A DNA stretch of 64,000 nt from Vicinamibacterales bacterium (GCA_965197375.1 CBDAMZ010000008.1:229398-293397), one strand, 5' to 3'; counted from the first letter of the stretch, positions 7,852-29,038 are shown. Numbers and translations are program-made. Notes: generated by a model not told the origin, from the sequence alone.

Positions 7852-9060
7852 TTGTCCAAGGTCCTGATCTCGTGTGGCGAGCCGTCCGGCGACCTCTACG
7901 CCGGCGCACTTACCGATAAGATCCGCGAACTTGACCCGGACGCACGTGTGTTCGGTTTGGGCGGTGACTGCCTGCGCGCAAGCGGGGCCGGCCTCGTTTC
8001 GGAATACAGCGGGCTGACCGTCACCGGTTTATCCGAAGCGCTTGCCGTGTTACCCCACGCGTACGTTACCTACCGTCGGCTCGTCAGGTGGGCCAAAGTC
8101 GAGCGTCCGGACGTGTTCGTCGCTGTCGATTTCCCGGACTTCAACTTCAGACTCGCCTGGGCAATCAGGCGGCTCGGGATTCCAGTCGTGTACTACATCG
8201 GGCCGCAGGTGTGGGCGTGGCGTCGCGGCCGGCTCCGTGCGCTCAGGCGACTTATAGACTGTGTACTGGTCATCTTTCCCTTTGAGGAGAGTCTCTATCG
8301 TGACGCAGGGATCCCAGTGGAGTTCGTGGGGCACCCGCTTGTCGAGCTCGCGTCGCCGTCGGAAAGTCGCTGTGACTTCTTGCGCGCGCGTGGACTCGAT
8401 CCTGACGTTCAGACGGTCGCCCTGTTGCCAGGGAGTCGCCCGAACGAGCTTCGTGCGATCTTGCCAAAACTGGTACGAGCGGCCAGTGAGGTTGTCCGCC
8501 ACGTTCCAGACACGCAATTTCTCGTCGCCCGTGCGCCCAATCTTGATGATGCGCTGCTGGCGCCGCTGGGCGAGCTATCGGACGCCACTTTGCCGCCTGT
8601 GGTCGTGGAGGGTCAGACCGACGACGTCCTAGCGGCCTCAGATGTTGTGGTGACTGCGTCTGGGACCGCAACCGTGCAGGCAGCGATTCACCAGCGGCCG
8701 ATGGTGATCGTGTACCGCTTGTCGCCGCTGACCTACCGGTTCGTGAAGGCATTTGCTCAGGTGGACACTGTGGGCATGGTGAATCTGATCGCGGGTACCT
8801 CGGTCGTGCCAGAGCTAATCCAGGAGGCCTTCACGCCTAAGGCGGTCGCGGCCGAGGTAGTGAGCTTTCTCACCAACCCTGAACGCGCCGAGCGCACACG
8901 GGTGGCACTCGGCCAGGTGCGCGATCAGCTCGGGGGGGCAGGCGCGAGTCAACGAGCGGCCGAACTGGTGCTGGCCGTGGCGGGACAGCGCGGCCGCCCG
9001 ATCCCTGAACGTTCTGGAGACGGTGTGCCAAGAGGCGCTCGTCACGCCGCTGGAGGATGA
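7852..9060 (+). CDS. lpxB: Lipid-A-disaccharide synthase
   Basis: GEPSGD, DFPDFN, PQVWAWR, VGHPL, LLPGSR, SGTAT. Confidence 0.97.
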   Translation: MSKVLISCGEPSGDLYAGALTDKIRELDPDARVFGLGGDCLRASGAGLVSEYSGLTVTGLSEALAVLPHAYVTYRRLVRWAKVERPDVFVAVDFPDFNFRLAWAIRRLGIPVVYYIGPQVWAWRRGRLRALRRLIDCVLVIFPFEESLYRDAGIPVEFVGHPLVELASPSESRCDFLRARGLDPDVQTVALLPGSRPNELRAILPKLVRAASEVVRHVPDTQFLVARAPNLDDALLAPLGELSDATLPPVVVEGQTDDVLAASDVVVTASGTATVQAAIHQRPMVIVYRLSPLTYRFVKAFAQVDTVGMVNLIAGTSVVPELIQEAFTPKAVAAEVVSFLTNPERAERTRVALGQVRDQLGGAGASQRAAELVLAVAGQRGRPIPERSGDGVPRGARHAAGG

Positions 9061-9063
9061 CGC

Positions 9064-10143
9064 ATGCGGTGGGCCTGGCGTATCGCGATTGTTTCCGGTA
9101 TTCCCATCTATCTACACGGCACGTTTACGATCCTGATCGGGTTTCTCTTATTCAGCGGGTTGTTCAAGGGATGGGGGCTCACTGCCGCGCTGTCGAACGT
9201 CTTTTTCGTCCTGGCCATCTTTGCGGCCATCGTGTTGCACGAACTCGGTCACGCGCTGACCGCGCGTCGCTTCGGTATTCGAACACGCGACATTACGCTG
9301 CTTCCAATCGGCGGGGTGGCACGACTCGAGCGGATGCCGGACATCCCCCGCCAAGAATTGTGGGTCGCGCTGGCTGGTCCAGCTGTCAACATCTTGCTGG
9401 CGGCCGTGTGCTATATGACGTTCACGGTGGTAACTGGCGGTTCGCCTAGCCTGACCCTAGATCCCTCGGCCACCGGTTTCGTCGGCCGGTTCTCGGCGGT
9501 CAATGTGGCCCTTGCCGTCTTTAACCTCCTGCCAGCGTTTCCAATGGACGGCGGCCGGGCGTTGCGAGCGTTGCTCGCCGAACGGATCGACTACGTTCGA
9601 GCGACCGAGATCGCCGCGAACATCGGGCAGGGCCTAGCGCTGGCCTTCGGGTTAATCGGCCTGTTTTTGAACCCATGGCTGGTGTTCATCGCGTTGTTTG
9701 TCTGGATTGGCGCCAGCAACGAAGCCTCCCTAGTTGGCATGCGCGGCGCCCTGGCCGGGGTCCAGGTTAGCCGCGCCATGATAACCAACTTCCGGAGCGT
9801 TTCCGTCGACAGTCCGCTATCGGACCCGGTTGCACGTGTTCTGGATGGAGCGCAACGTGACTTTCCGGTGACCGATGGTGGCCGGTTGGTCGGCATCCTC
9901 ACGCGCGACAAGCTCGTGTCCGCGTTGACAGAACGTGGGCCGGCTAGCCCGGTACGAAAGGCGATGACCACGGAGTTCGAGACTGCAGACGCGCTCGAGA
10001 TGTTGGACGGCGCCTTCATCCGGCTGCAGAGTACGTCGTGCAATGTACTCCCGGTGCTGTACAGAGGACGCCTCGTCGGGCTCCTGACGTTGGACAATAT
10101 CGGTGAGTACGTGACGATCCAGGGCGCCATTGGGAAAGGGTAG
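9064..10143 (+). CDS. Site-2 protease (M50) with C-terminal CBS pair
   Basis: LHELGH, AGPAVN, FNLLPAFPMDGGR, two CBS repeats. Confidence 0.95.
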   Translation: MRWAWRIAIVSGIPIYLHGTFTILIGFLLFSGLFKGWGLTAALSNVFFVLAIFAAIVLHELGHALTARRFGIRTRDITLLPIGGVARLERMPDIPRQELWVALAGPAVNILLAAVCYMTFTVVTGGSPSLTLDPSATGFVGRFSAVNVALAVFNLLPAFPMDGGRALRALLAERIDYVRATEIAANIGQGLALAFGLIGLFLNPWLVFIALFVWIGASNEASLVGMRGALAGVQVSRAMITNFRSVSVDSPLSDPVARVLDGAQRDFPVTDGGRLVGILTRDKLVSALTERGPASPVRKAMTTEFETADALEMLDGAFIRLQSTSCNVLPVLYRGRLVGLLTLDNIGEYVTIQGAIGKG

Positions 10144-10372
10144 TGGACCGGCACCGGTCTCTACCCCAGCCTTTCTATCCCACGACGCCGTCAAATTTCT
10201 TCAGGTGCTGTCTCGCGTTGACCCGGGTGGCTGGCCGAGGCTGTCGATGCGCCGAGATGTCACTAGCTCACGGCGAACGAGGCCCTCGTCTAGTCGTCGT
10301 GCAACGCTCGAGCGGTGTACAGTGGGCCCAGAAAGCGTTAACCGTGTTTTCGGCAGCCGGTGAGGAGGACGC

Positions 10373-10912
10373 TTGGACGCGCGCAGAATCTCTACGCGGC
10401 CTTGGCGGTTTGCGTCGGTTTTCGTGGCTGTTGAGATCGCTGTACAGATCCCAATCTACTCAGGCGCGCAGGCTCAAGCGCCGAGCATGGATACCGTCGC
10501 TGCCGGTATGAGGATTTACCGCCAGAAAGGAGACTGCCAGGCGTGCCACGGCTGGGCGGGTGACGGCCGAAAAATGGACAGCCAAATGCCAGACGGGGCA
10601 AACCTTCGGGCAAGCCAGCTCGATCGCGACCAGCTAACCTTCGTCATCAAGTGCGGTCTTCCTGGCCGGAGCATGCCGGCCTTCGACCGGTTCGCCTACA
10701 GCGATGGGCGCCGTCTTGGTAGGACACGCGCTGATTTACAGCGAATGGGCCTGGAGTTGCCAGATCCTGCTGCCACCCTTCAGCCACGAGAGATCGAGCG
10801 GCTGGTCGACTTCCTGTTCGCGAAGGTTATCGGGCGAGGGCTGATGAATTATGCAAAATGCGTTGACTATTGGGGCTCTGATGTAGAGGTCTGTAGCGAG
10901 TTCCCAAAGTGA
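10373..10912 (+). CDS. Exported monoheme c-type cytochrome
   Basis: CQACH heme motif, MPAF distal Met, extra Cys residues; convergent with the PQQ dehydrogenase. Confidence 0.85.
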   Translation: MDARRISTRPWRFASVFVAVEIAVQIPIYSGAQAQAPSMDTVAAGMRIYRQKGDCQACHGWAGDGRKMDSQMPDGANLRASQLDRDQLTFVIKCGLPGRSMPAFDRFAYSDGRRLGRTRADLQRMGLELPDPAATLQPREIERLVDFLFAKVIGRGLMNYAKCVDYWGSDVEVCSEFPK

Positions 10913-10937: not shown

Positions 10938-12716
10938 CTAGCCCAATGCGAACACGAACAGGTAGCTCGAGGTTTCGAGGTTGTCGTATTTCACCGGATG
11001 CAGGTGACGGCCACCGGCCTGCACGGCAAGATACTGTGTTGGGCCAATCGCGTAGGTGACGGGTGCACCCTTGAGAGGCGTGCCCACGTTGAAGCGCCAG
11101 AGCTCCTGAAGCGTCTCGTCATTGTAGGCGACGATCCAACCGTCCTGGAGGGCTGTGAATACCAAACCGCCAGCTGTGCTGATGATACCTGACCGAATTT
11201 CGATATCGGTGACCGCCTTCGAGATGACCTTGTGGTTGATGACGTCGATCGCCGTGACCGCGCCGTAGTATAGGTCGCTGCTGTAATCACGACGCTTACT
11301 TGCCTCCCGATCTACACCGCCGTCAGGGGAAGGTGACGCTATAGCAGCGCCACTTTGCGAGAAGCAGCCCTCGGTGCCGACGCCGTAGGCAATGTTCTTG
11401 ATTGGGTTAAAGGCCAGGGGCTGGTGCGAGACACCCCCGTGCCAGGTCGGACAAGCACGCTTTATCTCATTCCGATCAGCGCGCAGTGCGCGCGCATCAG
11501 GATTGTAAATCTGCACGTCAAGATTCGGATCGTACTCAACCGGAAAGCCGGTGGTTGGATTGATGCCATTGGTCCAGTTCAGATCGTTGACGTACTGCAC
11601 AGCCTTAACAAAAGCACCGTTGGTCCGATCGATAGAGTAAAAGAATCCGTTTCGCGCGTAATGTGCCACTGCTTTTAGCGGCTGACCGTCGATTGTGGTG
11701 TCGTAGAGCATATGGACACCCACTTCGTCATAGTCCCACGAATCGTTTGGCGTGTACTGGAAATGCCAGGCGCGCTCGCCTGTTTCGACGTTGAGCGCGA
11801 CGACTGAGTTGGTATAGAGGTTGTCTCTAGGACGAAACTCCGCATCATAACTAGGATACAGGTTACCCGTGCCGAAAATATACAGGTTTGATTCTGGATC
11901 GTAGGACCCTGTCTGCCAGACACCGCCGCCTCCCGTCTTCCAGGCGTTGTGGTTGTCCTTCCAAGTTTCGCTTCCTGGCTGTCCGGGCTCAGGCACTGTG
12001 TACCAGCGCCACAGTTCGTCGCCGGTTGTCACATCAAGTGCAGCTACCCAACCACGCGTTCCGCCATCGCCCGCGCCATTCTGAACAAGGACCTTGCCGT
12101 CGGCGACCAATGGTGCCGTGAGGAATCGCTCTCGACCACCGAATTCGTTCGTGGTCGCGATCTCCGTGTCCCACACGATCTCACCGGTGTCGCGGTTGAT
12201 AGCGATGACGCGGCCGTCTGGAAGATTTGCCAGCACGAGGTCTTCCCAGAGCGCGATGCCGCGAGTGCGTGGGCGGTTGTCTTCGTGGTCCACTCCTGGG
12301 TCGGTGATCCACACGAACGTGCCCTTGTCTGGATGCCGTGCGTCGATCTTGTAGACTGTGCCCCACCCGTCGCTCGTGTACATAAAGCCGTTATCGATGA
12401 GCGGGTTGACCTCGTTTTCTGGACCGTTCTGTCCGACGTCCTGCATGCCGCCGAGCGCGAGTGCCCACACGAGTCTCAGATTCTTAACGTTACCGCGATT
12501 AATTTGTGTAAGCCTAGAATACCGAAGCGAGCCGTAGTCGCCGTTCATCAGGAGCCAGTTGTTCGGTTCGTTTTGCGCGTTGATCAACCGGTCTCTATTG
12601 ACGGTGAGAGTGTACTGTCCACCGATCGTGATCGCAGAAGTCACCACGACGAATGCACACGAAAGAAAAATCCGTGCCAGTGAGTGACGGTGCATGGTGT
12701 GTTCCCCGTAGGACAC
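10938..12716 (-). CDS. PQQ-dependent dehydrogenase (quinoprotein alcohol dehydrogenase-like beta-propeller)
   Basis: Signal peptide, RYSRLTQIN, repeated A.D..TG...W docking motifs, GGGVWQTGSYDP, QYTPNDSWDYD, RNGFFY. Start may be ATG 12695. Confidence 0.93.
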   Translation of the reverse strand: MSYGEHTMHRHSLARIFLSCAFVVVTSAITIGGQYTLTVNRDRLINAQNEPNNWLLMNGDYGSLRYSRLTQINRGNVKNLRLVWALALGGMQDVGQNGPENEVNPLIDNGFMYTSDGWGTVYKIDARHPDKGTFVWITDPGVDHEDNRPRTRGIALWEDLVLANLPDGRVIAINRDTGEIVWDTEIATTNEFGGRERFLTAPLVADGKVLVQNGAGDGGTRGWVAALDVTTGDELWRWYTVPEPGQPGSETWKDNHNAWKTGGGGVWQTGSYDPESNLYIFGTGNLYPSYDAEFRPRDNLYTNSVVALNVETGERAWHFQYTPNDSWDYDEVGVHMLYDTTIDGQPLKAVAHYARNGFFYSIDRTNGAFVKAVQYVNDLNWTNGINPTTGFPVEYDPNLDVQIYNPDARALRADRNEIKRACPTWHGGVSHQPLAFNPIKNIAYGVGTEGCFSQSGAAIASPSPDGGVDREASKRRDYSSDLYYGAVTAIDVINHKVISKAVTDIEIRSGIISTAGGLVFTALQDGWIVAYNDETLQELWRFNVGTPLKGAPVTYAIGPTQYLAVQAGGRHLHPVKYDNLETSSYLFVFALG

Positions 12717-12980: not shown

Positions 12981-13736
12981 GTGTCAAGCCGCTGGTTCCG
13001 GATCGGGCAGATTGTTCCAAGTTCGAACACCACCATGGAGACCGAGCTTCCGGCGATGTTGCGCGCCAGGGAAGCGGTGGCGCCCGAACGTTTCACTTTT
13101 CACTCGAGCCGGATGCGAATGAAGCAGGTCACGACGGAAGAACTTGCGGCGATGGATACGGAAGCCGATCGCTGTGCGGCCGAACTGGCTGATGCAGACG
13201 TAGACGTTCTCGGATACGCGTGCCTGGTGGCCATCATGAGTGCGGGCAAGGGCTATCACTGCCAGTCTGAGCGGCGCCTGCACGAGGTGACCGTGCGGGA
13301 AGGGCACCCGGCGCCGGTGGTGACCAGCGCAGGCGCGCTTGTGGAGGGACTCAAGGCTCTTCGGGCCAAGAAGGTGGCCATGGTGGCGCCCTACATGAAG
13401 CCGCTAGCACGGCTGGTTGCAGACTACATCGAAGCTGAGGGAATTGGGGTCGTCGACCTGATGGCTCTCGAGATTCCAGACAATCTTGAGGTTGGACGCC
13501 GCGACCCGATGGCTCTTGCCGGTATATACCGCGATCTGTCGCTGGCTGGTGCCGATGTGCTCGTCCTGTCTTCGTGCGTGCAAATGCCGTCGCTGGCGGC
13601 GATCTCGGTGGTCGAGCGCGAATGCGGGCTGCCGGTGGTGTCGGCGGCTGTCTGCACGGTCCACCAGATGCTTCACACCCTCGGCCTCGGCACCCACGTA
13701 CCAGGGGCCGGGGCGTTGCTATCCGGCCGGTACTAA
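12981..13736 (+). CDS. maiA: Maleate cis-trans isomerase (Asp/Glu racemase superfamily)
   Basis: IGQIVPSSNTTMETE, YACLVAIM, SCVQMPS (two catalytic Cys). Confidence 0.9.
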   Translation: MSSRWFRIGQIVPSSNTTMETELPAMLRAREAVAPERFTFHSSRMRMKQVTTEELAAMDTEADRCAAELADADVDVLGYACLVAIMSAGKGYHCQSERRLHEVTVREGHPAPVVTSAGALVEGLKALRAKKVAMVAPYMKPLARLVADYIEAEGIGVVDLMALEIPDNLEVGRRDPMALAGIYRDLSLAGADVLVLSSCVQMPSLAAISVVERECGLPVVSAAVCTVHQMLHTLGLGTHVPGAGALLSGRY

Positions 13737-13858
13737 CACACCGATCCTCTGTTGCGCTTCGGGATGATCAGGAGTCGGGTCGTTCGATAATCAGCAAGCC
13801 GACGAAGCATCGTTGGAGCGCTTGCCACGCAAGCCTTGACCGAACACGGCACGTCGAC

Positions 13859-14902
13859 TTACCTCGAGCTCTGCTGGGTGGCTTCTTCGACGGCCTTTTC
13901 TTCGAGGCGGGCTCCAACGAGGATGCCTTCCATGCCGATGTTCCCTTCGTGGCACGCGTACTCGTAGATAGCGTCGTTGGTGCTCATCAGCGGGATCAAG
14001 ACGGTCCAGGGTTTAGTCCAGGTCGTCGGGTCGTTGATGGCAACCGAGTAGTTGAGCGTGTTCGGGCTAACGCGGGTCAGGCGCTCTGTCAGATGCAGGC
14101 CCTCAGACGATATGCGTCTAAAGGTGCTTTTCGGAGAATAGTTTGTTGTTTCGATCACCAACGTGTCGTCTTCCCAGTGGCCGCGCGAGTCCCCGTGCCA
14201 CTGCCGGAGGCTGGCGTCGAGATGCGGCGACCCGTTGAGGGGAATAACCCGCGCGTCGTGGTTCATTTCCATGAGTATGACTACGTGATCGGCACTCTGA
14301 AAGATTTGGTAATAGCTGTTGTAACCGGCGCTAAGCCTCGGCACGCCGTAGGTGACACACCGCTCGCTCAGTGGTCGGTCTGTGTATGTGTCAGCGGGGT
14401 GCTCGCGGCGACGGTCTGCCAGCACTTGCCGGCGATTCTGCGCGGCCGCCGTCAGGGCCGGAATCCGCCCATCCAGTGGGTCGATTACCAGTGACGTTCG
14501 GTCACTGAAGTTTCTAGCGGCGATCCAGAACTGGTTGTAGTTACCGGTTGTCGGATCGTAGGATTCTGCTTTCGTGTTCGCGATCGCTGCTAGTACCAAC
14601 TGGTCGCCGAAGAGCGCATCTCCGTCGCCAACAACTTGCACAGCTGCCACCTGCAGTTCGGCTAGCTCTTCATCAGTCAGGCGTGCTTTCCCGGTCCATT
14701 CTTCTGGCCGCTCCAACGGCGTGGCATTGTTATTTGCCCAGACGCCCTGCAGGTTTGGTTGGCCGTCTGGTGTGCGTGGCAGCGTCCACTCACCACCGGG
14801 GGCCTGTCCAGCGGTTCGAACTGGCGCAGGCGACACGATCGCGATCGTGGCCAATGACGCAGCAAGAGCTCGGAGGCTCATCCGTGTTTTCACTGTCCTC
14901 AC
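13859..14902 (-). CDS. Uncharacterised exported protein, paralog 1 (PRTPDG...ERC...YEYACHEGN family)
   Basis: Signal peptide; PRTPDGQPNLQGVW, RPLSERC, GDSRGHWEDDTLVIETTNY, YEYACHEGN; intact ORF. Confidence 0.85.
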   Translation of the reverse strand: MRTVKTRMSLRALAASLATIAIVSPAPVRTAGQAPGGEWTLPRTPDGQPNLQGVWANNNATPLERPEEWTGKARLTDEELAELQVAAVQVVGDGDALFGDQLVLAAIANTKAESYDPTTGNYNQFWIAARNFSDRTSLVIDPLDGRIPALTAAAQNRRQVLADRRREHPADTYTDRPLSERCVTYGVPRLSAGYNSYYQIFQSADHVVILMEMNHDARVIPLNGSPHLDASLRQWHGDSRGHWEDDTLVIETTNYSPKSTFRRISSEGLHLTERLTRVSPNTLNYSVAINDPTTWTKPWTVLIPLMSTNDAIYEYACHEGNIGMEGILVGARLEEKAVEEATQQSSR

Positions 14903-14952
14903 TCCCGTTACAACGGCTGGCGCTCAGGCCGGAAGGGCAGAGTAGCGAGGTG

Positions 14953-15436
14953 TTACCGCGACGGTTCCGTCGGATCGCTACCGTCACGCGGAGCACCGGT
15001 TCCGGACGAACCCATGAAAAACTTTCGGCCGTCTTCGAACGTCACATCTCGCCCATTGGCTCGAGCCGTACGGTCCTTGCTCTGGTAGCCGGAGACGACG
15101 ATGACCATGCCAGATAGGACGTCATCACGCCGTAGGCCTCGCCGCAACAGCGTGTTCGGGGTGCCGCCTTCGACCATCCCACACCTGCTTGGTGCCGTCC
15201 TCATTGGTTACTTCCAAGTGAATCCAGGCATGCGGATTTACCCATTCAACCTTGACCACCGGTCCCCGCAGGAGGATGGGCCGGTTCGGGTCGAATTCCG
15301 CGCCAAACGCGTGGTGAGCGGCCACTGGCACCGCCGCTACGAGGAAAAGGCCGACAGTGGCGACGAGCGACACGGTGGCTTCGAGTGACAGACGGGAACT
15401 TCGTCTCATGCGCATGAATTGCACTCCTTGTGACAT
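14953..15436 (-). pseudogene. DUF6152-like exported protein, frameshifted
   Basis: Signal ...VPVAA-HHAFGAEFD, KVEWVNPHAWI, then an extra G in TGGGATG (~15178-15180) separates it from MVEGGTPNTLLRRG...GYQSKD. Confidence 0.8.
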
Positions 15437-15467
15437 TTGACAGCGGTGACGAGAGCTACACCACCGG

Positions 15468-16570
15468 CTACTTAAACTCGTTCAGCACGTCGGCTTCGAG
15501 AATCCGTGCCCCCCGGAGAATCCCCCCGAGTGAATAGTTCGCTTCGTGGCAGGCGTACTCGTAGATGCGATTGTCAGTCACCGGCCATACATACTCACCG
15601 CTCCACGGCTCAGTCCAGACCGTCGGATCCTCGACCGTGAACTGGTACAGGAGTGTATTGGCATCGATCCACGAAAAGCGCTCCACGACGTGCAAATTCA
15701 GAGACGCCAGAGCAAATCCTGGGGTGTCGGTGAAATTCGTTGTGTCGACCACCAGTCTGTCACCTTCCAGTGGCCAACCGAATCACCGAGCCAATTCCTG
15801 ATTTTTGGCGGGGCGTGCTCCTTGTTCATACGGACGATACGGGCGTCGTGGACCATCTCCACGAAAATCATTACATGGTCTTCGGTTTGCACGATCTTCT
15901 TCAGGTTGTTGTACAAGACCGGCAGCATCGGTGGACCGGAGGTCGAACCAAATCCTATGAGACACCGCTCTGCGAGCGGGCGGAGTTCCGGATCGTCATA
16001 GGGCCCAGGCGCGTCGAGGTTGTCAGAGAACCACCAGGCGGTGCCGGTGTTTGGGCGTCTCAACCTAGCTCTCGTATCCGCCTGCTGCTGCCCTTCTGAC
16101 GTCAGGAGCGGCTGTCGCCCATTAGCAGGGGAGGTGATGATCGACGTGCGCCACTGCCCGTTGATCTGGAAGGCTCCCGCTCCCTTATCCATCCCAAACG
16201 TGCTGTAGGCGCCGACGGCTCCAGCCGCACCGGTTGACCCGTCACCGCCGACTGGCGGAGCCTCTTGTGGCACATGGCCAATGTCGTTTCTGTCAGCAGG
16301 AATACTGAATCTGGCCGCGAGCGCAATAGGTGCGTCTCTCGCGACAGCCGATGCCTCCTCTTCGGTCAGAGACAACCTGTCTCCAAATTCTTCTGGCCGC
16401 TGCAACGGCGTAAGGGTTGCCGTGTCGTAGGTGCCAGACAGATCCGGACGACCGTCAGGCGTTCTGGGGATGTTATCGTTTTGTGCGACAGCAACTATTG
16501 CTGGAACCACGCACGCGATCGCAAACACGCCAAGAAAAACTAAGAATCGACGGCGCATAATATCCTCCAT
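15468..16570 (-). pseudogene. Uncharacterised exported protein, paralog 2, frameshifted
   Basis: PRTPDGRPDLSG, RPLAERC, GDSVGHW; one base missing at ~15767-15769; restoring it gives GHWEGDRLVVDTTNF...YEYACHEANY. Confidence 0.8.
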
Positions 16571-16573
16571 TAA

Positions 16574-17422
16574 TTATTGCTCAAGCGGGGTGCGGCGATA
16601 TTCGCCGAAGATCAACTCTTCGACGAACTCGACGCATTTAAAATCCATCAACCGCACGTTCTCTTCGATTCGGCGGTAGAGCGGCATGCTGATCGTCCAG
16701 GGGCGTGTAAACACCTGTGGGTCTTCAATGGTGGCTTCGTACTGGATGTGGTTCTGGCTGATCAGCGTGTAGCGTTCCACGACGCGCATCTGATTACTGT
16801 GATGGTTTCCGGCCCGGTCAAACCAGGTTTGGTCGTTGAGCCCGGTGACTTCGACGACGAGTGTATCGTCCTCCCAGCGGCCGGCGGACTGGCCCATCCA
16901 AGAATCGGTCTGCGCCGGCTCAAGCTCCTCTAGGAAAATATCTCGGACCGCACTTGCATACTCGTGTGCGATGAAAATTGACTTCTCGTTCTGAAAGATC
17001 TGAAACGGAAATGGCATGTACGTTGCCCTCGGCACACCAGGCATGTAGCACTTGATCTCCGGGTCGCGTTCGAGCCAGTTGGCCCGGTTTTCCTCCTGCG
17101 TCGCGCGCGCCTCCGGCGTGTAGGGGATCACACCGCCCTCGACCACTCCCATGCTGCCGGGGACCGCGCCGACGGCGCCGAGCGCCAGAACCGGTACCGC
17201 GGGTAGGGGTCCCTGCGGTCCCTCGCGGAGCGCCATAGCAGAACGTGCAACGTGCGGCTCGATATCGTAGTTGGCTGAGTTCAGGGCTTGCCAGATGCCA
17301 TTTAGATCGGGGCTGCCATTCGACAATCGGGGCGGTTCGAAATCAGGAGATTGTCCTTGAACAGGCACCGCTGCCAGCACGAGTGCGATCACCACGGCGG
17401 TTGCGGCCAAAGATGAATTCAT
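16574..17422 (-). CDS. Uncharacterised exported protein, paralog 3
   Basis: Signal peptide; PDLNGIWQAL, DPEIKCYMPGVPR, GQSAGRWEDDTLVVE, IEDPQVFTRPW, MDFKCVE. Confidence 0.85.
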   Translation of the reverse strand: MNSSLAATAVVIALVLAAVPVQGQSPDFEPPRLSNGSPDLNGIWQALNSANYDIEPHVARSAMALREGPQGPLPAVPVLALGAVGAVPGSMGVVEGGVIPYTPEARATQEENRANWLERDPEIKCYMPGVPRATYMPFPFQIFQNEKSIFIAHEYASAVRDIFLEELEPAQTDSWMGQSAGRWEDDTLVVEVTGLNDQTWFDRAGNHHSNQMRVVERYTLISQNHIQYEATIEDPQVFTRPWTISMPLYRRIEENVRLMDFKCVEFVEELIFGEYRRTPLEQ

Positions 17423-17673
17423 TACTCAAACTCCCCTGAGTCTTCTACGCGAGACAGCACGTCGGCCTGATTTAGCCGATCCAAACAGCTACTACTGTCG
17501 GCGACATGGGCGACAAACATCAAGCTATTGGGATCGTTAGCCGCCACACTTCATCAGCGGCGATTTTCAAGCAACTGACGCACACTGTGTAAGTTAGGGC
17601 TTGTCAGACAGCGTAGCTTAAATCGACATGAAGAAAAGCCCCATACGGCGCCGCACCATGTATACTGCCATGT

Positions 17674-18390
17674 CTACTGCCCGCGGGCTGACGCGGCACG
17701 TTCATTCAACATACCTATCACCTCATCCACGGACGCGTCAGGCTTTGTTTCGATCACCGTGGCCAGCAAGCCAGTCATATTGGCCACGGCGAAGCTGAGG
17801 CCTTTAAGATTTTCGGCTGGCGGCACTCCTGGAATCGATCGAGGAAAACCAGACGCGAAAAACACGGTCCGGCCATCAGCGGTTGTCTCGGCGCGGAACT
17901 GGTCCCGTGGGCACGCCCAGTCCAACTGAACCGGGATGACCGAGGGCAGACAACCCGGCAGCCAGTGTACACCGTCGTGGTTACCAGCCGAAACGATCAG
18001 CGTGCCGCTGGTGCTCGCGCGGTTCACTGCCGCACTCAGCGGTTCCTCGTGCTCGGCTTTGGTTGTTCCGAGGCTTAGGTTGATCAGTCGCATCTGATGG
18101 GTTGCGGCCCAATCGATGGCGGCCACCAGCGCCTCGATAGGTGCTGAGAGTGAACGGTCGAAGACCTTGACCGCGAAAAGTTCGGCCGCTGGTGCTCGTT
18201 CGCGAATGGCCGCGGTGACGGCCGTTCCGTGGCCGAGGCGATCGACGTAGTCGTCGTGCTCACGGCCCCTCGGATCGATGCCTACGCCCCCAGAAACTCC
18301 ACCGACATGCGGGTGAGCAGCGTTCACACCGCTGTCGATCACAGCAATATGGATCCCTCGGCCTGTCTGCCTGTTGAACGCTGCATGCAT
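17674..18390 (-). CDS. qhpE: Subtilisin-like leader peptidase for the QHNDH gamma subunit
   Basis: Compact cytoplasmic S8 fold: IAVIDSG, GHGT, INLSLG, SAGN, GLSFA; last gene of the qhp cluster. Confidence 0.82.
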   Translation of the reverse strand: MHAAFNRQTGRGIHIAVIDSGVNAAHPHVGGVSGGVGIDPRGREHDDYVDRLGHGTAVTAAIRERAPAAELFAVKVFDRSLSAPIEALVAAIDWAATHQMRLINLSLGTTKAEHEEPLSAAVNRASTSGTLIVSAGNHDGVHWLPGCLPSVIPVQLDWACPRDQFRAETTADGRTVFFASGFPRSIPGVPPAENLKGLSFAVANMTGLLATVIETKPDASVDEVIGMLNERAASARGQ

Positions 18391-18535
18391 GGTTTGATTT
18401 GGTTCGGCGAGCTCGTGGAAACATTCTGATCGGCAAGCGGCCAGTTCTCGACCTTTCAGTAGGGCCGTTTGGTGCTCCCTCGTTGATGGCTGAACGCTGA
18501 CGGCCGCAAGCTAGTGTTTCATATTTTCTCGGTTA

Positions 18536-20320
18536 CTAGTCCTGTGCTTTTACTCCAGCAAACAGGCCGGCGAACACTCCTCGTTGCAGCTCAAGCTCTT
18601 GTGGCGATCCCTCCTCGACGAGGCGCGACCCATCCAAAACGATCACCCGGTCGGCTTTACTGACCAGCTCGAATCGATGCGAAATCAGGATCGTCGTCCG
18701 ATCCTGCATGACCGCTTCGTAGCCCGCGATGACTCGCCGTTCCGAGATGGGATCCAGTGATGATGTCGGTTCGTCCAACACGAGCACGGCTGGGTTTGCG
18801 AGATACGCACGGGCGATGGCAATTCGTTGCCGCTCTCCAGCTGACAACGCTGTTCCGCGTTCCCCAACCACGGTTTCGTATTTTTCTGGCAGGCCTTCGA
18901 CGAAAGCATCGATACCTGCTCTGCGAGCCGCCGCGACGATCTCGGCATTAGAAGCTTGCGGCCGGCCATAGCGGATGTTTTCGGCAATGGATGTGTGAAA
19001 GACGAATGGTTCCTGGTCGACCGAGACAACGTGCTCGCGTAGATCGCCAAGTTGTACGTTGCGTAGGTCATGGCCGTTGAGCCGAACACAGCCGGTGTCT
19101 GGATCGAGCAGTCGCAAGAGTAAGTCGGCAATCATGGACTTTCCGCTCCCACTTGGCCCGACGACTGCGAGGATTTCACCTGCCTTGACTGAGAAGCTGA
19201 CCCGGTCCAGTACTGGCCCCCCGCGATCAAACGACAACGTAACGTTCTCGAATACCACGTCGCCGCGGACCTTCGGGAGAGGGGTCGCATTCGTGCGCTC
19301 GATAACATCTACCTTAGTATCGAGGAGTTGATGGACACGCCCCAGCGATACTCGTGCGGTCGCCAGATTTGCGTACAATCCCATCAGCGCCTGAATCGGG
19401 GAAAGCAACCGCATTTGGTAGGCCATGAAGGCGACGAACGTGCCCATGGTGATCGTGTCACTGATGACTCGTGAGCCACCGTAGAGGAACACGATCGCGG
19501 TGCTGCCGGACAAGATGAGTCCTGGAAGACCACCAGATAGGTACGTGACCCACTGCATGGATATCAGCGCTAGGACGAACGCGTTGTTTCTGGCTCTGAA
19601 CCGCTCGACTTCCCTGGCCTGTGCGTTAGACGTTACGATCAGTTTCACGCCTTGCAGCGTTTCGATCAGGAAGCTGCCGATGTCGGCGCTTCGCTCTCGC
19701 AGTGTTGCAACCCGGCCCTCGAGTTGAAGGCGGTAACGCTTCAGTGTCCACAGGCTTAGTGGTAGCAACACCACGCTGACGAAAAACAGGCGGGTGTCCA
19801 GCCAGATCAGCATGAAGACACTTCCGATCAAGAACAACACGTTTCCCACCCAAGCGAGGGCAGCTTCCGCAGCTACACGCTGGATTTCGCCAATATCATT
19901 GTTGATACGCGAAACGATGTCACCGAGGCGTGTGCGGGCGTAGAACGTCGGGGAAAGCCGCTGGAGATGCTGGTACAACGCGAGACGCATGTCAAATAGG
20001 ATCCCGGCCGAGACGCGTGTGTAGCGGAGCCCACTGATTACATTCAGTACGAAGCTGGACAGCGTGATGAGTGCAAATAGCAGCACGATCCGCTGAAGCG
20101 CGGCGGCATCGCGCCCGATCATCGCCTGATCGACCAGGTTTTTTGACAGGTACGGGAGGTAGAGGGACAGTACCGTGCTGAGCAGGCTCAGTCCGAGCAC
20201 CAGCAGCAACCGCCGCCAGTACGGCACGATGTAAGTGAAGGCCCAGCGGAAGTTTGGATCAACCACAGGAATGGGAAGCTTGGGACTGGAGACGAAAGAG
20301 AGAGGCCGGAAACCGATCAC
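18536..20320 (-). CDS. qhpF: ABC exporter (fused permease/ATPase) for the modified gamma subunit
   Basis: 6-TM domain, GPSGSGKS, LSAGERQR, LVLDEPT; lies between qhpB and qhpE. Confidence 0.85.
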   Translation of the reverse strand: MIGFRPLSFVSSPKLPIPVVDPNFRWAFTYIVPYWRRLLLVLGLSLLSTVLSLYLPYLSKNLVDQAMIGRDAAALQRIVLLFALITLSSFVLNVISGLRYTRVSAGILFDMRLALYQHLQRLSPTFYARTRLGDIVSRINNDIGEIQRVAAEAALAWVGNVLFLIGSVFMLIWLDTRLFFVSVVLLPLSLWTLKRYRLQLEGRVATLRERSADIGSFLIETLQGVKLIVTSNAQAREVERFRARNNAFVLALISMQWVTYLSGGLPGLILSGSTAIVFLYGGSRVISDTITMGTFVAFMAYQMRLLSPIQALMGLYANLATARVSLGRVHQLLDTKVDVIERTNATPLPKVRGDVVFENVTLSFDRGGPVLDRVSFSVKAGEILAVVGPSGSGKSMIADLLLRLLDPDTGCVRLNGHDLRNVQLGDLREHVVSVDQEPFVFHTSIAENIRYGRPQASNAEIVAAARRAGIDAFVEGLPEKYETVVGERGTALSAGERQRIAIARAYLANPAVLVLDEPTSSLDPISERRVIAGYEAVMQDRTTILISHRFELVSKADRVIVLDGSRLVEEGSPQELELQRGVFAGLFAGVKAQD

Positions 20321-20368
20321 CTTATGCTTCGAGCGAGAAAAACTGCGGCCAGAGTCGGGAACTATCGG

Positions 20369-21511
20369 TCAGGGTGGTGCCACGATTAGGTTCGTCGTCA
20401 TGTCGCCATCGAGCTCGATTCTACGCAGATGGCTGTGGGTTGAAATGTCGTAGAGGTCGATGGTATTACCGGCCTGATAGATGTACAGAAACTTGCCGTT
20501 AGTGCTGGTCTTCAAGCCCATGCGCGGCCGACCTTGAATCTCTACCCGTTCGTGCAGTCGCCGATTTTCGAGGTCAAACGTCCAGAGTTCGTAACGGCCA
20601 ATCAGGTCGGTCCGGGAGACCGGCGCGATGTTCTGTGAGGCGGCTTTCAGGAACCCGTAGGCCCTCCGGCGTCCGGGCGCTAGCGTGAAGCTGACTGATG
20701 CCTCTGGTGAAGGCCCGATGGTGTAGAAGTCGACGCTTTTCTCAGGCAGGTTGATGCGCGCCACTCCCATCATCTGGCGATTCTGAATCGGATCTCGCGC
20801 CTGGAACAACCCGGTAAAAAATCCTGGTTCTTCGTTGAACATATCGGGCGCAAAGCCGAAGCTGCCGAGGGAGCCGAAGCCTTCCTCGTGTGGCCGCGAG
20901 AGCTCCCACTTGTCAACTTGCGTGAAATTTTCTGTTTCGAAGATCAGCACGTCGTTGGAAAAGAAGTAGAGCAGGTCGCCGTCGGGTGAAAACAGCAGCT
21001 TCGTGGCCCCTAGTTCTTGGACCGAACCAGCCGGCCACGGGATCGTGCGGACCACCCGGTGTTCCGTAAGGTCATACTGCAGAAGCTCCAGCGGCCCGAT
21101 CTCGAACCGGTCGATATGCTTAGTGGTGGCACGCGCAATCAGGATCATGAGGCGGTGCAGTGGGTCGACCTGGTACCCGCTGATTCGAACCTTCCTGTTG
21201 CCTTCACTTAATGTGAACGTGTCGATGGTTTCTCTGGTCTCGACGTCGATAATTTCTATGTCCTCGAATGCGGCCTCGCCCATGTAGAGACGCTTACGGT
21301 CTTGGGAGAGAGTGAGGCTGCGCGGTATGCCGATCGTGACCGGGATTTCCGCGGTCACCTCCATGGTGGCCTCGTCTATTACGAGTATCCGGTTCGAAAT
21401 TGTGCCAACGTACAGCGTGCCATTGCCCCCGGTCACGCTCGAGCTTGACTGGGCGTCGGCCGTGGCAGTCAAGGCAACAAACACGACGGCCACCAAGAAC
21501 ACATATCGCAT
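20369..21511 (-). CDS. qhpB: Quinohemoprotein amine dehydrogenase beta subunit (beta-propeller)
   Basis: Signal peptide, YVTN-like repeats, C-terminal IELDGDM; immediately after qhpC. Confidence 0.85.
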   Translation of the reverse strand: MRYVFLVAVVFVALTATADAQSSSSVTGGNGTLYVGTISNRILVIDEATMEVTAEIPVTIGIPRSLTLSQDRKRLYMGEAAFEDIEIIDVETRETIDTFTLSEGNRKVRISGYQVDPLHRLMILIARATTKHIDRFEIGPLELLQYDLTEHRVVRTIPWPAGSVQELGATKLLFSPDGDLLYFFSNDVLIFETENFTQVDKWELSRPHEEGFGSLGSFGFAPDMFNEEPGFFTGLFQARDPIQNRQMMGVARINLPEKSVDFYTIGPSPEASVSFTLAPGRRRAYGFLKAASQNIAPVSRTDLIGRYELWTFDLENRRLHERVEIQGRPRMGLKTSTNGKFLYIYQAGNTIDLYDISTHSHLRRIELDGDMTTNLIVAPP

Positions 21512-21603
21512 GGGAAGCTCAGCCCTGAAGAAAGTTTAAGGTCAACAAGAAAAATCGAATAACGTCCAGCACGGCGTTCGGCGTCGAACCTTTCGACTAT
21601 GGA

Positions 21604-21957
21604 CTACGGAAAGACCAGATCGATCTTCCGCCAGTCCTTTGCGGCTGCAGCACAGGTGCTCGTCCAGTCGGGCGAGTAGTTGAGATGGTCTGGCACCTGC
21701 GCTGGCCAGAAGCAGCCCGTGTAGCAGTCAAACAGATCCCGCTCGACCGGCGAGCACAAGCCAGCCGTGCCGCCATTGCGATCGGTCTCCCACCCTGGTG
21801 AGAAGATCAGTGTGCAGCCCATCGGCACGTGCGCTGAGGGCTGCTGTGGTGGCCCTTGGCCTTGCAACGCCACCACACCGTTACGCGCCTTCATCGACTT
21901 CTGTACGTGTCGATCCACGCGTCCAGCCTTTTGGTTAATCGACCTTAAGTGCTTCAT
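21604..21957 (-). CDS. qhpC: Quinohemoprotein amine dehydrogenase gamma subunit (CTQ precursor), 117 aa
   Basis: MKHLRSINQKA leader; GCTLIFSPGWE, LCSPVERDLFDCYTGCFWPAQVPD, DWRKIDLVFP. True start is ATG 21957, not the longer ORF call. Confidence 0.95.
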   Translation of the reverse strand: MKHLRSINQKAGRVDRHVQKSMKARNGVVALQGQGPPQQPSAHVPMGCTLIFSPGWETDRNGGTAGLCSPVERDLFDCYTGCFWPAQVPDHLNYSPDWTSTCAAAAKDWRKIDLVFP

Positions 21958-23392
21958 TGTCTGCCTCTGTGTCGAACCGTGTGAGGAACCCCGGGTTCCG
22001 TTCGGAGAGCTCGCCGTAAACCTGCAGGCACGTGTCAGTCCAGCCGCGAATCCATTCGCAGTAATGAAGGTTCGGCCGCTCGGTTGTGCCGTATCGCGTA
22101 TGTGCTTCGTGATAGCAACCACCCGAGCACAGCGGCCGGGCCCAACAGGTGTGACAGTCGGTCTTGCTCGCGATGTGATGCTTGTCGAGGAAGTCACGCT
22201 GCGTCTCGTGATCGATGCCGTCGCGGACGGTTCCGAGCTTGTGGTCATCCGATCCCGCAAACCGGTGGCAGAGTGCCACATCGCCGTCCGTCGCGACGCC
22301 CATCAACCCTAGTCCGGCACCACAGGGGTACGCCTTACTCACGCCCTTGTGGATCTCGGAGAGGGTCTCCTTGATGTTTGAAAATGCATGAGGTCGGCCG
22401 GCTACCGCATGGTCGAGGAACTCGTAAGCGAGCTCACGGAATTGCCCGAGCATGTGGCTAAAACCATCTTCTCCGATCGCGTAATCGCGGTTGGGTGCCG
22501 TTGTAACCGGCGCGAAGCCGACTTCCGTGAACCCGATTTCCTCGGTGAGGTGGCGAAAGATCTTCTTGATGTCGATAACCTGGGAGGTCAGGGTGACACG
22601 CGCCCCGATCGGACGGCTGCGATGCCGACGCAGGAGCTCGCGGACCTTCGGCTTCACGACGTCGTAGCTACCAGCCCCGTTGTGAAAGACGCGGAACTTG
22701 TCCTGCATGTCTTTGGGCCCGTCAATCGAAACCGTGACCAACACGTCGTTATCCGCCAGGAACTCGATAATCTCGGGTTCTAGTAGCGTGGCGTTGGTGG
22801 TCAGACTGAACTCTACCCGCTTTCCCAACTCCGCAGCTCGTTGCTTCGCGTAGGGAATCGTCTTTTTGAGGACCGGAAAATTGAGTAGGGTCTCACCGCC
22901 GAAGAACGTCACGTTCGCGACCTTGTTGGATCCTGACTCTCTGAGCATGAAATCCACGCTTTCGCGCGCGGTTTCTTCGGTCATGAACTTGGGCTTCTTT
23001 CCGTTCGCCGTGTCGACAATCTTGTCCTCCCCGTACTCATAGCAGTAGGTACAGGCCAGGTTGCACTGGTTGGTCACGTTTAGCACCAGTGTCGACAGTG
23101 GGAACGGAGCCAGGGGAATGATTTTCGGCATCGGCGCCGCGGGCGCCTCGTGCTCGCCAACAGCCTGGACCTGCTCGAGTTCCTCGATGCTAGCTTCGAC
23201 GTCGGCGGGGGAAAACCGGTCAGACAGGGCGCCGGTCAAATCGGCACGCGTCAACCGGTGCTCACGTAACTCTTCGAGGATGGCGTGTGACGTCTCGTCG
23301 AGCGCGAACACGGCGGCGCTCGGGACGAGGTACACGAAAGGGCGTCCGGAGGCTTCGAAGGAGTGAAACTCGCGTAGGGCCAGTGTTTTCAT
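21935..23392 (-). CDS. qhpD: Radical SAM/SPASM thioether-forming maturase
   Basis: CNLACTYC, FFGGE, SIDG, PCGAG, LCHRF, CHTCWARPLCSGGCYH, CEWIRGW; N-terminal RRE-like region. Confidence 0.95.
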   Translation of the reverse strand: MKTLALREFHSFEASGRPFVYLVPSAAVFALDETSHAILEELREHRLTRADLTGALSDRFSPADVEASIEELEQVQAVGEHEAPAAPMPKIIPLAPFPLSTLVLNVTNQCNLACTYCYEYGEDKIVDTANGKKPKFMTEETARESVDFMLRESGSNKVANVTFFGGETLLNFPVLKKTIPYAKQRAAELGKRVEFSLTTNATLLEPEIIEFLADNDVLVTVSIDGPKDMQDKFRVFHNGAGSYDVVKPKVRELLRRHRSRPIGARVTLTSQVIDIKKIFRHLTEEIGFTEVGFAPVTTAPNRDYAIGEDGFSHMLGQFRELAYEFLDHAVAGRPHAFSNIKETLSEIHKGVSKAYPCGAGLGLMGVATDGDVALCHRFAGSDDHKLGTVRDGIDHETQRDFLDKHHIASKTDCHTCWARPLCSGGCYHEAHTRYGTTERPNLHYCEWIRGWTDTCLQVYGELSERNPGFLTRFDTEADNEALKVD

Positions 23393-25179: not shown

Positions 25180-25204
25180 CGTGGGTCACCCCCACCCGTG
25201 GTGA

Positions 25205-25233
25205 CTTTTAGCATACCTCTTGAGTGGAAGCAA
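25205..25233 (-). promoter_or_regulatory. Possible sigma70-type promoter for qhpA
   Basis: Minus strand TTGCTT-N17-TAAAAG with a TG extension; the -10 is imperfect. Confidence 0.3.
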
Positions 25234-25387
25234 TCGGATTCACGCGGTCGGCTGTGGCCGCCTAGCCCTGGTGCAATCTGTAGCCTGAGCGCTGAGCCTT
25301 TTCTACCCCGGCCAGTGCCCAGCTCTCTGGTGCCAAGCCGTTCCGCCTAGCTCGCTCCTCGTGTTTCTTTGGCACGTCATAACTTTG

Positions 25388-26968: not shown

Positions 26969-27160
26969 CAGGCTTCGCGCCGATTGTCACTGCTTGGGAG
27001 AGGCTCTCAAGCCGAGGGAGTACGACCGCGTGCGGGAAGTGCGGACCGCGAGTGAGCTTACCTCGCGCGACGACTGAGCTGCTGGGTGGCGAGGAAGACA
27101 GAGAACACGCGCTTGCGTACTCGACAAGGCGAGCCAGTCACACCCGTACGCGGGAGCCGA

Positions 27161-27574
27161 TTACTGGTTGGTCCGCTTATACAGATCACGCAGGTAGTTT
27201 ACGGTGTTCCAGATATCCTCGTCCGTGATCCGCCCTTCCCACGGCTCCATGGAATAGTCCGGCGGGACGCCTTCTCTGATCAACCTGAAGACCTCGGCGT
27301 CGCTGCCGCCATGGTCCCACTCGTCGTCGACCAGGTTCGCCGGCATCGCATCTGCGGGAGCGCCGAGGCCATCCCCTTTTCCCTCAGGCCCGTGACATGA
27401 CCGGCAGAATCGCGCGTAGATCACACGCCCCCCCGCTACCGATTCCTCGGACATCGCAATCGGGTTGTCCTGGGCTTTGAGGACCACGATCGCGGCTGAG
27501 TTGCCAGGCGACGCGACCATCAGACCGCCGCCGACCAGTGTGAGCACTGCAAAGCCTACCGACACGTAACGCAT
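27161..27574 (-). CDS. Exported monoheme cytochrome c, probable QHNDH electron acceptor
   Basis: Signal peptide, CRSCH, MEPW distal Met, SD GGAGGT upstream. Confidence 0.9.
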   Translation of the reverse strand: MRYVSVGFAVLTLVGGGLMVASPGNSAAIVVLKAQDNPIAMSEESVAGGRVIYARFCRSCHGPEGKGDGLGAPADAMPANLVDDEWDHGGSDAEVFRLIREGVPPDYSMEPWEGRITDEDIWNTVNYLRDLYKRTNQ

Positions 27575-28628: not shown

Positions 28629-29038
28629 TGCGTCGACCTCCGGCCGGCCAAAGGGCGGCCGGCCTCCAGCTGGTCTACCTTCGCATACAGCAACTCGGTC
28701 TCCATCAGGAGTTCGCCGATCTTGGCCTGCAGCCGACGGTGGTCGTCGTCCACCGCCTCGGTCGCTCGGCTCTTCAAGCCGGCCTGGCCAGCCGCCAAAA
28801 ACCTATCGCGCCACTGCGAGGCCCGCGCCGCCGTGATGCCCAACTCCCGCGACACCGACTCGAGATCCTCACCCCGCAGGAGGCGGAGCACCGTCGCGCG
28901 TTTACACCTGGCCGAAAACCGCCCCTTCCGGTCACGCGCGGCGGCCGCTCCAGTCGCCCTCCGGGCTCCCTCCGCCGCCACCGAACTCTGATCGTGCTTC
29001 CTCATCTCGACACTCCTCCTGCGAGCACTCTCTCGCAA
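28625..29038 (-). CDS. IS3-family OrfA (HTH plus coiled coil)
   Basis: VLRLLRGEDLESVSRELG...WRDRF, LQAKIGELLMETELL; ATGA overlap with orfB. Confidence 0.9.
   Translation of the reverse strand: MRESARRRSVEMRKHDQSSVAAEGARRATGAAAARDRKGRFSARCKRATVLRLLRGEDLESVSRELGITAARASQWRDRFLAAGQAGLKSRATEAVDDDHRRLQAKIGELLMETELLYAKVDQLEAGRPLAGRRSTQ

Follow-up and report, generated by a model that had tools for sequence, protein, structure and literature searches.

Organization of the locus

The subject of this report is a cluster of four genes on the minus strand of a 64,000-nucleotide stretch of DNA from a Vicinamibacterales bacterium (GCA_965197375.1 CBDAMZ010000008.1:229398-293397). The whole stretch is called the window below, and positions are counted from its first letter. 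Calling of open reading frames (ORFs) at 13859-17422 gave four co-oriented genes in the order C, B, D, A. Genes A, B and C encode members of an unnamed family of exported barrel proteins, designated here as X, which occur in a short form (Xs) and a long form (Xl), and gene D encodes a protein of the DUF6152 family. The features are as follows.

16574-17422, minus strand: gene C, 282 amino acids, intact, short-form barrel protein (Xs) with the cysteine pair IKC ... FKCVE
15698-16570, minus strand: gene B, 5' part (N-terminal), 290 amino acids, long-form barrel protein (Xl)
15468-15752, minus strand: gene B, 3' part (C-terminal) in another frame, 94 amino acids, VDTTNFT ... YEYACHEANY
15125-15436, minus strand: gene D (DUF6152), 5' part, PF19649 at 64.1 bits, profile positions 4-57
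14953-15204, minus strand: gene D (DUF6152), 3' part in another frame, PF19649 at 27.6 bits, profile positions 57-93
13859-14902, minus strand: gene A, 347 amino acids, intact, long-form barrel protein (Xl)

A preliminary description of the locus had proposed three paralogs with shared motifs and a small DUF6152-like partner, spaced by 3-50 nucleotides (nt), and this layout was borne out in each respect. The genes are separated by 3 nt (C-B), 31 nt (B-D) and 50 nt (D-A). Gene A is 35% identical to C over 147 amino acids (E 2e-22) and 32% identical to the N-terminal part of B over 258 amino acids (E 2e-32). The motifs PRxPDGxPDLxGxW, ERC/IKC, GxWExDTLV, ER[YFL], DPxxxTxPW and YEYACHE/MDFKCVE are all seen in their alignment (A1), whose profile, built from these same sequences, scored 568 bits for A, 426 and 126 bits for the two parts of B, and 394 bits for C. 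On an independent profile of 120 members (A2), gene A scored 433 bits.

Gene C lacks the helical insert of the long forms, has 'CVE' where these have 'CHE', and starts with a signal peptide; signal peptides and cleavage sites were judged by eye here and throughout. The Xs model gives it 429 bits and the Xl model 149, and in the family tree it clusters with the short forms of two loci from related genomes, L008 (genome G009) and L028 (genome G021). Intact orthologues of gene B lie directly upstream of D at the same two loci; in the window, the 3' part of B matches positions 253-333 of the family model (126 bits). The two pieces of D both exceed the PF19649 gathering cut-off of 27 bits and jointly span the DUF6152 domain across a frameshift. 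The 5' part carries a signal peptide, with cleavage predicted between VAA and HHAFGAEFD, and a WVNPHAW motif, and the 3' part reads MVEGGTPNTLLRRG ... GSSGTGAPRDGSDPTE. That D needs repair had been recognized in the preliminary description; the frameshift in B had not been mentioned there. Scanning of 13600-17800 for promoters and terminators was uninformative, with one promoter-like site (1.2 expected) and one terminator-like site on the wrong strand (3.6 expected).

The barrel family

Family X is large. Its profile, run against 1.84 billion representative sequences clustered at 50% identity, found 23,404 matches at E<=1e-3, 10,650 at E<=1e-10 and 1,768 at E<=1e-30, and in a word-indexed search 7,985 of 8,000 scored candidates reached E<=1e-3. 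Those matches of the word-indexed search that bear a name are all called 'hypothetical protein' and mostly carry the label Acidobacteria or Vicinamibacterales. A match to a characterized family was sought in Pfam, NCBIfam, the Protein Data Bank (PDB) and the ESM Atlas, and none was found. Pfam and NCBIfam gave no match to genes A, B and C; a set of 120 diverse members yielded no credible Pfam match (best E 0.0042, to unrelated families); no related solved structure was found in the PDB by single sequence or by profile; and the 30 nearest clusters in the ESM Atlas carry no Pfam family. The nearest named entries of that atlas, Glyoxalase (0.82) and DUF3471 (0.79), fall under the level worth trusting and were set aside. 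The earlier statement that neither X nor DUF6152 has an assigned function thus stands, both for the databases named and for the literature.

Among the 120 representatives of A2, which are 27-53% identical, the columns G53, G145, P148, C182, G237, E273 and C317 (gene A numbering) are invariant, and R181, E212, R218, W243, H318, E319 and N321 are nearly so. An AlphaFold2 model of gene A made with this alignment reached a predicted local distance difference test (pLDDT) of 88.5 and a predicted template modelling score (pTM) of 0.84. In the model, a calycin-like barrel is built from the N-terminal strand with PDLxGxW and from strands 197-308, approximately residues 60-195 make up a helical insert, and a long C-terminal helix (318-346) carries the motif C317-H318-E319-x-N321. 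By VIA-align the barrel resembles 5b0u (Z 10.1, root-mean-square deviation 3.2, 116 residues aligned), 6at8 (Z 9.8) and 3ia8 (Z 8.0), and by Foldseek 5xn9 (E 2.7e-4), with further matches to 1e-3. The predicted fold of X is therefore that of a calycin-like barrel resembling the FABP/CRBP/nitrobindin type, which is a fold class and not a function, and Z values of 8-10 may reflect a common arrangement only.

The DUF6152 protein

Forty relatives of D were aligned with the two pieces from the window (alignment A3, 42 sequences). In nearly every sequence a hydrophobic leader ends in an AxA-type site that is followed directly by HHAF(S/A)AEFD, so that histidine is read as the first mature residue. 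Residues H26, H27, E32, D34, E49, W50, N52, P53, H54 and W56 are kept in at least 90% of the 42. An N-terminal histidine on an exported protein is a hallmark of histidine-brace copper proteins, and H54 of the NPH motif, conserved in at least 90% of the sequences, is a candidate second metal ligand. The model of D (pLDDT 87.6, pTM 0.74) has an oligonucleotide/oligosaccharide-binding (OB) fold, with Z values of 9.4-8.0 against SSB and PriB; the best 50 VIA-align rows hold SSB, PriB, RPA, MCM and OB domains of tRNA synthetases. Because D is exported, DNA binding is not expected despite this SSB-like fold. No related solved structure was found for D in the PDB by sequence or profile. Six proteins (P0274-P0279) fuse D to PF13801, a heavy-metal-resistance, CpxP-like domain.

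Pairs of DUF6644 membrane proteins were also observed, which adjoin a lone D or lie near X, in one case together with a cytochrome c'-like protein. DUF6644 or the cytochrome c'-like protein may be a membrane or redox partner of the X and D proteins. The sites are listed below.

G000 (the genome of the window), contig C7:207378-209062 (locus L045): DUF6644 site
G000, contig C10:304557-305590 (locus L047): DUF6644 site
Locus L023:5376-5852: DUF6644 site

Linkage of the barrel proteins with DUF6152

Adjacency of X and D was assessed at 40 D sites from 10 relatives, scanned with our own X and D profiles. An X gene lies within 500 nt of D at 36 of these sites, and by our own arithmetic approximately 2-4 of 40 would be expected by chance, given at least 78 to 133 X matches of approximately 1 kb in genomes of 3.9-6.5 Mb. 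In the genome of the window, four of the five D loci adjoin X, and X loci are found on contigs C8 (the present locus), C6, C7 and C1 and at four places on C10. Over 61 genomes of the class, D is present in 12 and X in 12; 11 have both and 48 have neither, the two discordant genomes being a weak D-only case (G030, 38 bits) and a weak X-only case (G032, E 3e-25). Counting of paralogs gave 16 X genes in the genome of the window and at least 78 to at least 133 X matches per genome in four relatives (at least 133 in G009, 109 in G024 and 78 in G012).

A tree of 78 full-length X proteins from D loci shows a deep split between short forms of approximately 250-305 amino acids, which lack the helical insert and have 'CVE' for 'CHE', and long forms of approximately 310-400 amino acids; A and B belong to the latter and C to the former. 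Both forms lie within 1.5 kb of D at 24 of the 40 sites and within 3 kb at 27. The C-B-D order has orthologous counterparts in G009 (L008) and G021 (L028). This recurrence, together with the presence of both forms near D, indicates that the unit is a trio of Xs, Xl and D, to which the window adds an extra Xl, gene A. The module is real and widespread and is not an artefact.

Two paralogous small lipoprotein-like ORFs with the motif PF(K/Q)PMAD and no Pfam match were also seen, adjoining two different X clusters.

G000, contig C10:86325-86783 (L041:2326-2784): PF(K/Q)PMAD ORF
G000, contig C6:134180-134752 (L043:7181-7753): PF(K/Q)PMAD ORF

Predicted complex of Xs, Xl and D

Since genes B and D of the window are broken, an intact paralogous trio of the same genome (L041, contig C10; Xs at 8390-9310, Xl at 9329-10456 and D at 10549-10971 of L041) was modelled as a complex, using Xs residues 32-288, Xl residues 26-376 and D residues 26-141, with a separate alignment for each chain and with D as the scored partner. 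The trio scored 0.69 (runs 0.69, 0.74 and 0.63), and the best of three controls scored 0.00. The mark used for reading such scores is reached by 116 of 157 solved complexes and by 2 of 215 mismatched pairs, and is only roughly valid for this job, with its own alignments and three chains. The runs share at least 70% of their contacts, and the pLDDT of the partner is at least 79. That the model merely reproduces a known arrangement is unlikely because no solved structure is related to X or D.

In the model, confident contacts run from D residues 27, 30-33, 49-54 (WINPH) and 56 to the EYACHEGN helix of Xl (residues 344-367), and D is also predicted to touch Xl 189-203, adjoining the first cysteine. 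The control in which Xl was replaced scored 0.00. Few contacts are made with Xs, which is no evidence against its binding. The most conserved motifs of X and of D are thus placed face to face by the model, an arrangement that supports binding. In one natural protein, P0283, D is fused with half an X barrel; it was the one case among 13 longer relatives of D, and none of 49 long relatives of A contains D.

Proposed module and alternative explanations

Taken together, these results lead us to regard the region, with a confidence slightly better than even, as one copy of a widespread and undescribed three-part exported module of Xs, Xl and D, probably metal-dependent, in which D docks on Xl. Such a module is probably a periplasmic heteromer in which a subunit with an OB fold and a His-His end sits on a calycin-like barrel. 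Export by the Sec route followed by cleavage of the signal peptide would expose the His-His end of D, where a metal site could be made up of the N-terminal amine, His1, His2 and the histidine of NPH. This face would dock on the conserved surface of the Xl barrel formed by the Cys pair and EYACHEGN, placing the metal centre at or beside the mouth of a barrel that would hold a small, probably hydrophobic, organic ligand. Xs would be a third component, more loosely attached. The preliminary description had proposed a periplasmic metallo-system of a large and a small subunit; that part of it agrees with the adjacency at 36 of 40 sites, the co-occurrence in 11 genomes, the fusion P0283, the complex score of 0.69 and the His-His end, and the link to quinoproteins that went with it is not supported.

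Several points count against this interpretation. Four of the 40 D sites (L017, L018, L020 and L034) have no X within 500 nt. The compared genomes are kin, mainly of two families, and their counts overstate independence. X outnumbers D from approximately 3:1 to 9:1 (16:5 in the genome of the window, 133:16 in G009 and 109:34 in G024, the X counts of the relatives being minimum values), and most X genes must therefore lack an adjoining D and may work alone. The complex score is the model's own confidence, obtained in a job unlike those of its calibration; the trio modelled is a paralogue on contig C10 and not the broken genes of the window; and few contacts between D and Xs are predicted, although Xs is as regular a neighbour of D as Xl. 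The structural matches to OB and calycin folds are middling (Z 8-10) and silent on function. Two of the four genes of the window's module are broken in this strain. A literature search found no paper on DUF6152, PF19649 or DUF6644. A broad search for Vicinamibacter together with paralogue expansion likewise returned nothing relevant.

The alternative that fares best, although we consider it rather unlikely, is that X barrels are self-sufficient modules, much like binding modules, that bind ligands or present substrates for periplasmic or secreted hydrolases, and that DUF6152 is a separate metal chaperone or stress protein that occupies the same operons but has neither a stable complex nor an active site in common with them. 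It draws on the excess of X over D and on the long relatives of gene A, in which X stands at the C-terminus of many catalytic domains.

X fusions: GDSL esterases P0307, P0309, P0314, P0317, P0322 and P0323
X fusions: carboxylesterase P0288; amidohydrolases P0293, P0295 and P0296; tannases P0298 and P0299; metallo-beta-lactamases P0304 and P0306
X fusions, others: NHL/SGL propellers, ankyrin repeats, EVE domains, a multihaem cytochrome, DUF3089 and a prenyltransferase-like repeat

The fused X starts at approximately model positions 28-36 and so has no signal peptide of its own; proteins in which X comes first and keeps its leader, such as P0287 with its PQQ (pyrroloquinoline quinone) domain, may be gene-calling run-ons. 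The genes that flank X-D pairs are mixed and mostly encode exported hydrolases (Peptidase_S15, Abhydrolase_10, the tannase-like DUF6351, M13, amidohydrolase, DUF885 and PD40), together with TonB-type outer-membrane barrels and DUF1552. Mixed fusions and mixed flanks accord better with a module of general use, for holding substrates or for docking, than with a dedicated pathway. Self-sufficiency of X is at odds with the distribution of its conserved residues, since the most conserved ones in A (E314, A316, C317, H318, E319 and N321) are on the modelled D-facing surface and not in a variable pocket, and also with the overlap of X and D in 11 of the 12 genomes that each of them occupies among the 61, with the 36 D sites beside X and with the D-X fusion. 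Under the three-part module, the same multiplication of X in relatives and its fusion to varied secreted hydrolases would mean that X is the common substrate-holding or docking part and D a shared small metal subunit.

A bolder version of the three-part module, which we put forward as speculative and unlikely as it stands, is that D and Xl form a new two-chain periplasmic metalloenzyme. Its composite site would consist of a centre like a histidine brace on D (His1, His2, His54 and the amine) together with Glu and His of EYACHEGN, over the mouth of the calycin barrel, which would select the substrate, and the barrel paralogues, dozens to hundreds per genome, and hydrolase fusions would be interchangeable substrate adaptors that share a few metal subunits. 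If this were true, a large unrecognized system for the oxidation or capture of small organic compounds would exist in soil and marine Acidobacteriota and other phyla.

It is less likely still, and quite improbable in our view, that catalysis resides in the long X proteins, whose invariant Cys, His, Glu and Arg would act inside the barrel, with D only loading or tuning the metal. Polar residues that are invariant or nearly so across 120 representatives are unusual for pure binding proteins, and enzymes do occur among the calycin-fold matches, e.g. the OlmO spirocyclase and the Oplophorus luciferase. However, CHE is replaced by CVE in the short clade, the cysteine pair may be no more than a disulfide, and no catalytic family matches X by sequence.

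Relation to the quinoprotein genes

The cluster lies downstream of a complete and intact qhp cluster (17674-27574), which comprises genes for a cytochrome c, qhpG, qhpA, qhpD, qhpC (approximately 21604-21924), qhpB, an ATP-binding cassette (ABC) exporter and qhpE. QhpG (248.9 bits), QhpA (428.3), QhpD (585.2), QhpC (115.2) and QhpE (171.3) are all above the NCBIfam cut-offs; QhpB is weak (54.9 bits), and the ABC exporter stands between QhpB and QhpE. As the preliminary description had it, every real gene from the cytochrome c gene (27161-27574) down to A is on the minus strand. On the other side, an arylmalonate-decarboxylase/EutA-like gene (12981-13736, plus strand) lies between A and a PQQ dehydrogenase of the methanol/ethanol family (10938-12716, minus strand). 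This dehydrogenase scored 403 bits, under the subfamily cut-off of 480 bits, and also resembles the 'acido-empty-quinoprotein' group.

These neighbours had led to the proposal that the module acts alongside quinoprotein amine or alcohol oxidation, which the loci of relatives do not support. None of 12 qhpE-anchored loci (11 relatives, approximately 8 kb on each side where the contig allowed) contains X or D, although the order qhpG-A-D-B-F-E is kept there. G009 and G012 have no QhpE at E<=1e-20 and yet hold at least 133 and at least 78 X matches. As for PQQ dehydrogenases, four PQQ-type ORFs lie near 3 of the 40 D sites; with at least 73 PQQ matches in G009, 57 in G012 and 78 in G021, a background of at least 57-78 per 3.9-6.5 Mb gives by our own arithmetic approximately 4 of 40 by chance, and there is no enrichment near D. 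Linkage to qhp and linkage to PQQ dehydrogenases are both rejected on these counts, and the module is independent of the neighbouring qhp cluster. PQQ dehydrogenases were also observed to be strongly multiplied in G009, G012 and G021, in which X is also most expanded; G024, with at least 109 X matches but only 16 PQQ matches among the candidates scored, indicates that the two expansions are not tightly coupled.

That the module is an accessory of the flanking quinohemoprotein amine dehydrogenase (qhp) or PQQ alcohol dehydrogenase genes is therefore extremely improbable and already largely refuted, even though C follows qhpE on its strand after 251 nt, with no terminator- or promoter-like site found in the gap, the PQQ dehydrogenase lies 1.1 kb beyond A, and P0287 joins X to a PQQ and a cytochrome c domain (X keeps its signal-peptide region there, at model position 4, and the protein may be a run-on).

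Decay of the module in the window

Gene B lacks one G at 15766/15767 and loses its frame there (minus strand ...CACTGG^GAAGG...), and D loses its frame in the G run at 15178-15180, which has one G more than the orthologue at L008:6899-7345 (...VWMVEGG...). Contigs of four public runs from four studies were compared over 14800-16000. Those of X8 and X9 equal the window letter for letter over 14800-15860, with both frameshift sites included; they are not two independent confirmations, as one may be the source sample of the window itself. Those of X11 and X12 have one extra letter after 15766, which restores the frame of B and GHWEGDRLVVDTTNFT. They are also one letter shorter within 15139-15564, a stretch that holds the frameshift site of D and the 31-nt spacer between B and D and inside which the indel table does not place the position. 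Gene B, and probably D, is accordingly intact in sister strains and broken in this one, and the two adjacent frameshifts look like strain-specific gene decay rather than a sequencing artefact. With both B and D frameshifted, this copy of the module is probably inactive.

The state of the genome agrees with this. Four of its 16 X family members are split, and it measures 2.36 Mb (91% complete) against 3.9-6.5 Mb in the relatives; its 16 X genes compare with at least 78-133 matches and its 8 PQQ genes with at least 57-78. An insertion sequence of 1304 nt has at least five copies in it, which are 100% identical.

Window 27735-29038: insertion sequence copy
G000, contig C10:285161-286464: insertion sequence copy
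G000, contig C8:60157-61460: insertion sequence copy
G000, contig C7:271983-273286: insertion sequence copy
G000, contig C4:61473-62776: insertion sequence copy

Split X genes, a small genome and insertion sequence copies together fit ongoing gene decay, and the lineage appears to be rich in insertion sequences and shrinking. Several copies of a second transposase family adjoin X and D loci. Unusual stop-codon use had been suspected from the '1 TAG' inside many six-frame X matches of the relatives and was dropped: long ORFs of the window's genome end in TGA (338), TAG (316) and TAA (181), and the internal TAG codons are most likely gene ends overrun by the profile. The runs that cover most of the stretch (73-88% of sampled words) bear organism names (A-D, four studies) and no metagenome label; in seawater and marine metagenomes the share is only 6-28%. 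These labels may point to a host-associated lifestyle.

For the window itself the outcome is a negative one: the module is outside the qhp amine-oxidation system, and its copy here is decaying. The wider interest lies in the families. X, whose profile matches 23,404 clusters at 50% identity, ranks with the larger unnamed protein families, and it forms with D a tightly linked module whose most conserved features are the predicted N-terminal His-His site and the docking helix. New in this report are the split into Xs and Xl and the trio, the co-occurrence table, the controls for qhp and PQQ, the complex model with its controls and interface, and the evidence on the frameshifts at the level of strains.

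Comparison with known systems

The X/D module shares with the qhp cluster a strand and an immediate vicinity in the window. It differs in that X and D occur in dozens of unrelated contexts and form no part of the qhp loci of relatives.

As in calycins (FABP, CRBP, nitrobindin and the lipocalins), an antiparallel barrel in X is predicted to be closed by an N-terminal strand with G-x-W, a motif that is a signature of lipocalins, and the likeness extends to VIA-align Z values of 10.1-8.0 over 102-128 residues and Foldseek E values of 2.7e-4 to 1e-3. Calycins carry small hydrophobic ligands or haem within their barrels. X differs from them in that identity is only 5-13% with no profile match, and in having an invariant pair of cysteines, the EYACHEGN motif, a long helix at the C-terminus and, outside the short clade, a helical insert of approximately 135 residues. 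X is moreover exported and multiplied up to more than 100 copies per genome.

D of the window shares HHAFxAEFD and WxNPHxW with its 40 relatives and is in this respect a member of PF19649. The family entry gives no function, structure or partner, and mentions neither the OB fold nor the His-His end nor the barrel; the copy in the window is frameshifted.

The closest functional comparison is with exported metal proteins that start with histidine. According to passages of PMC12537917, secreted proteins that start with His are binders of Ni, Cu or Zn, and such a residue marks the Ni and Zn binders found by 'signal-strapping'; several systems of this kind have a metal site that is turned towards a partner protein (PMC12537917; abstracts of PMC10952591 and PMC12362106). 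DUF6152 was absent from those passages of PMC12537917 that general terms returned, the term 'DUF6152' itself not having been searched there. D resembles the proteins of this group (the histidine-brace Cu proteins LPMO, CopC and YcnI and the Ni/Zn binders DUF4198, DUF6702 and the 'anglerases') in that His1 is its predicted first mature residue, and it has a further conserved His approximately 28 residues on (H54). D differs in having a predicted OB fold and not an Ig-like or cupredoxin-like sandwich, and in its two adjacent N-terminal histidines; its predicted partner is a soluble barrel and not a membrane protein such as CopD, YcnJ or HupE. If the complex and the metal site are real, the combination of an OB fold with a calycin barrel would be a new scaffold among the few N-terminal-histidine metal centres, and a role would be at hand for an appreciable fraction of the proteins that abundant soil and marine bacteria export.

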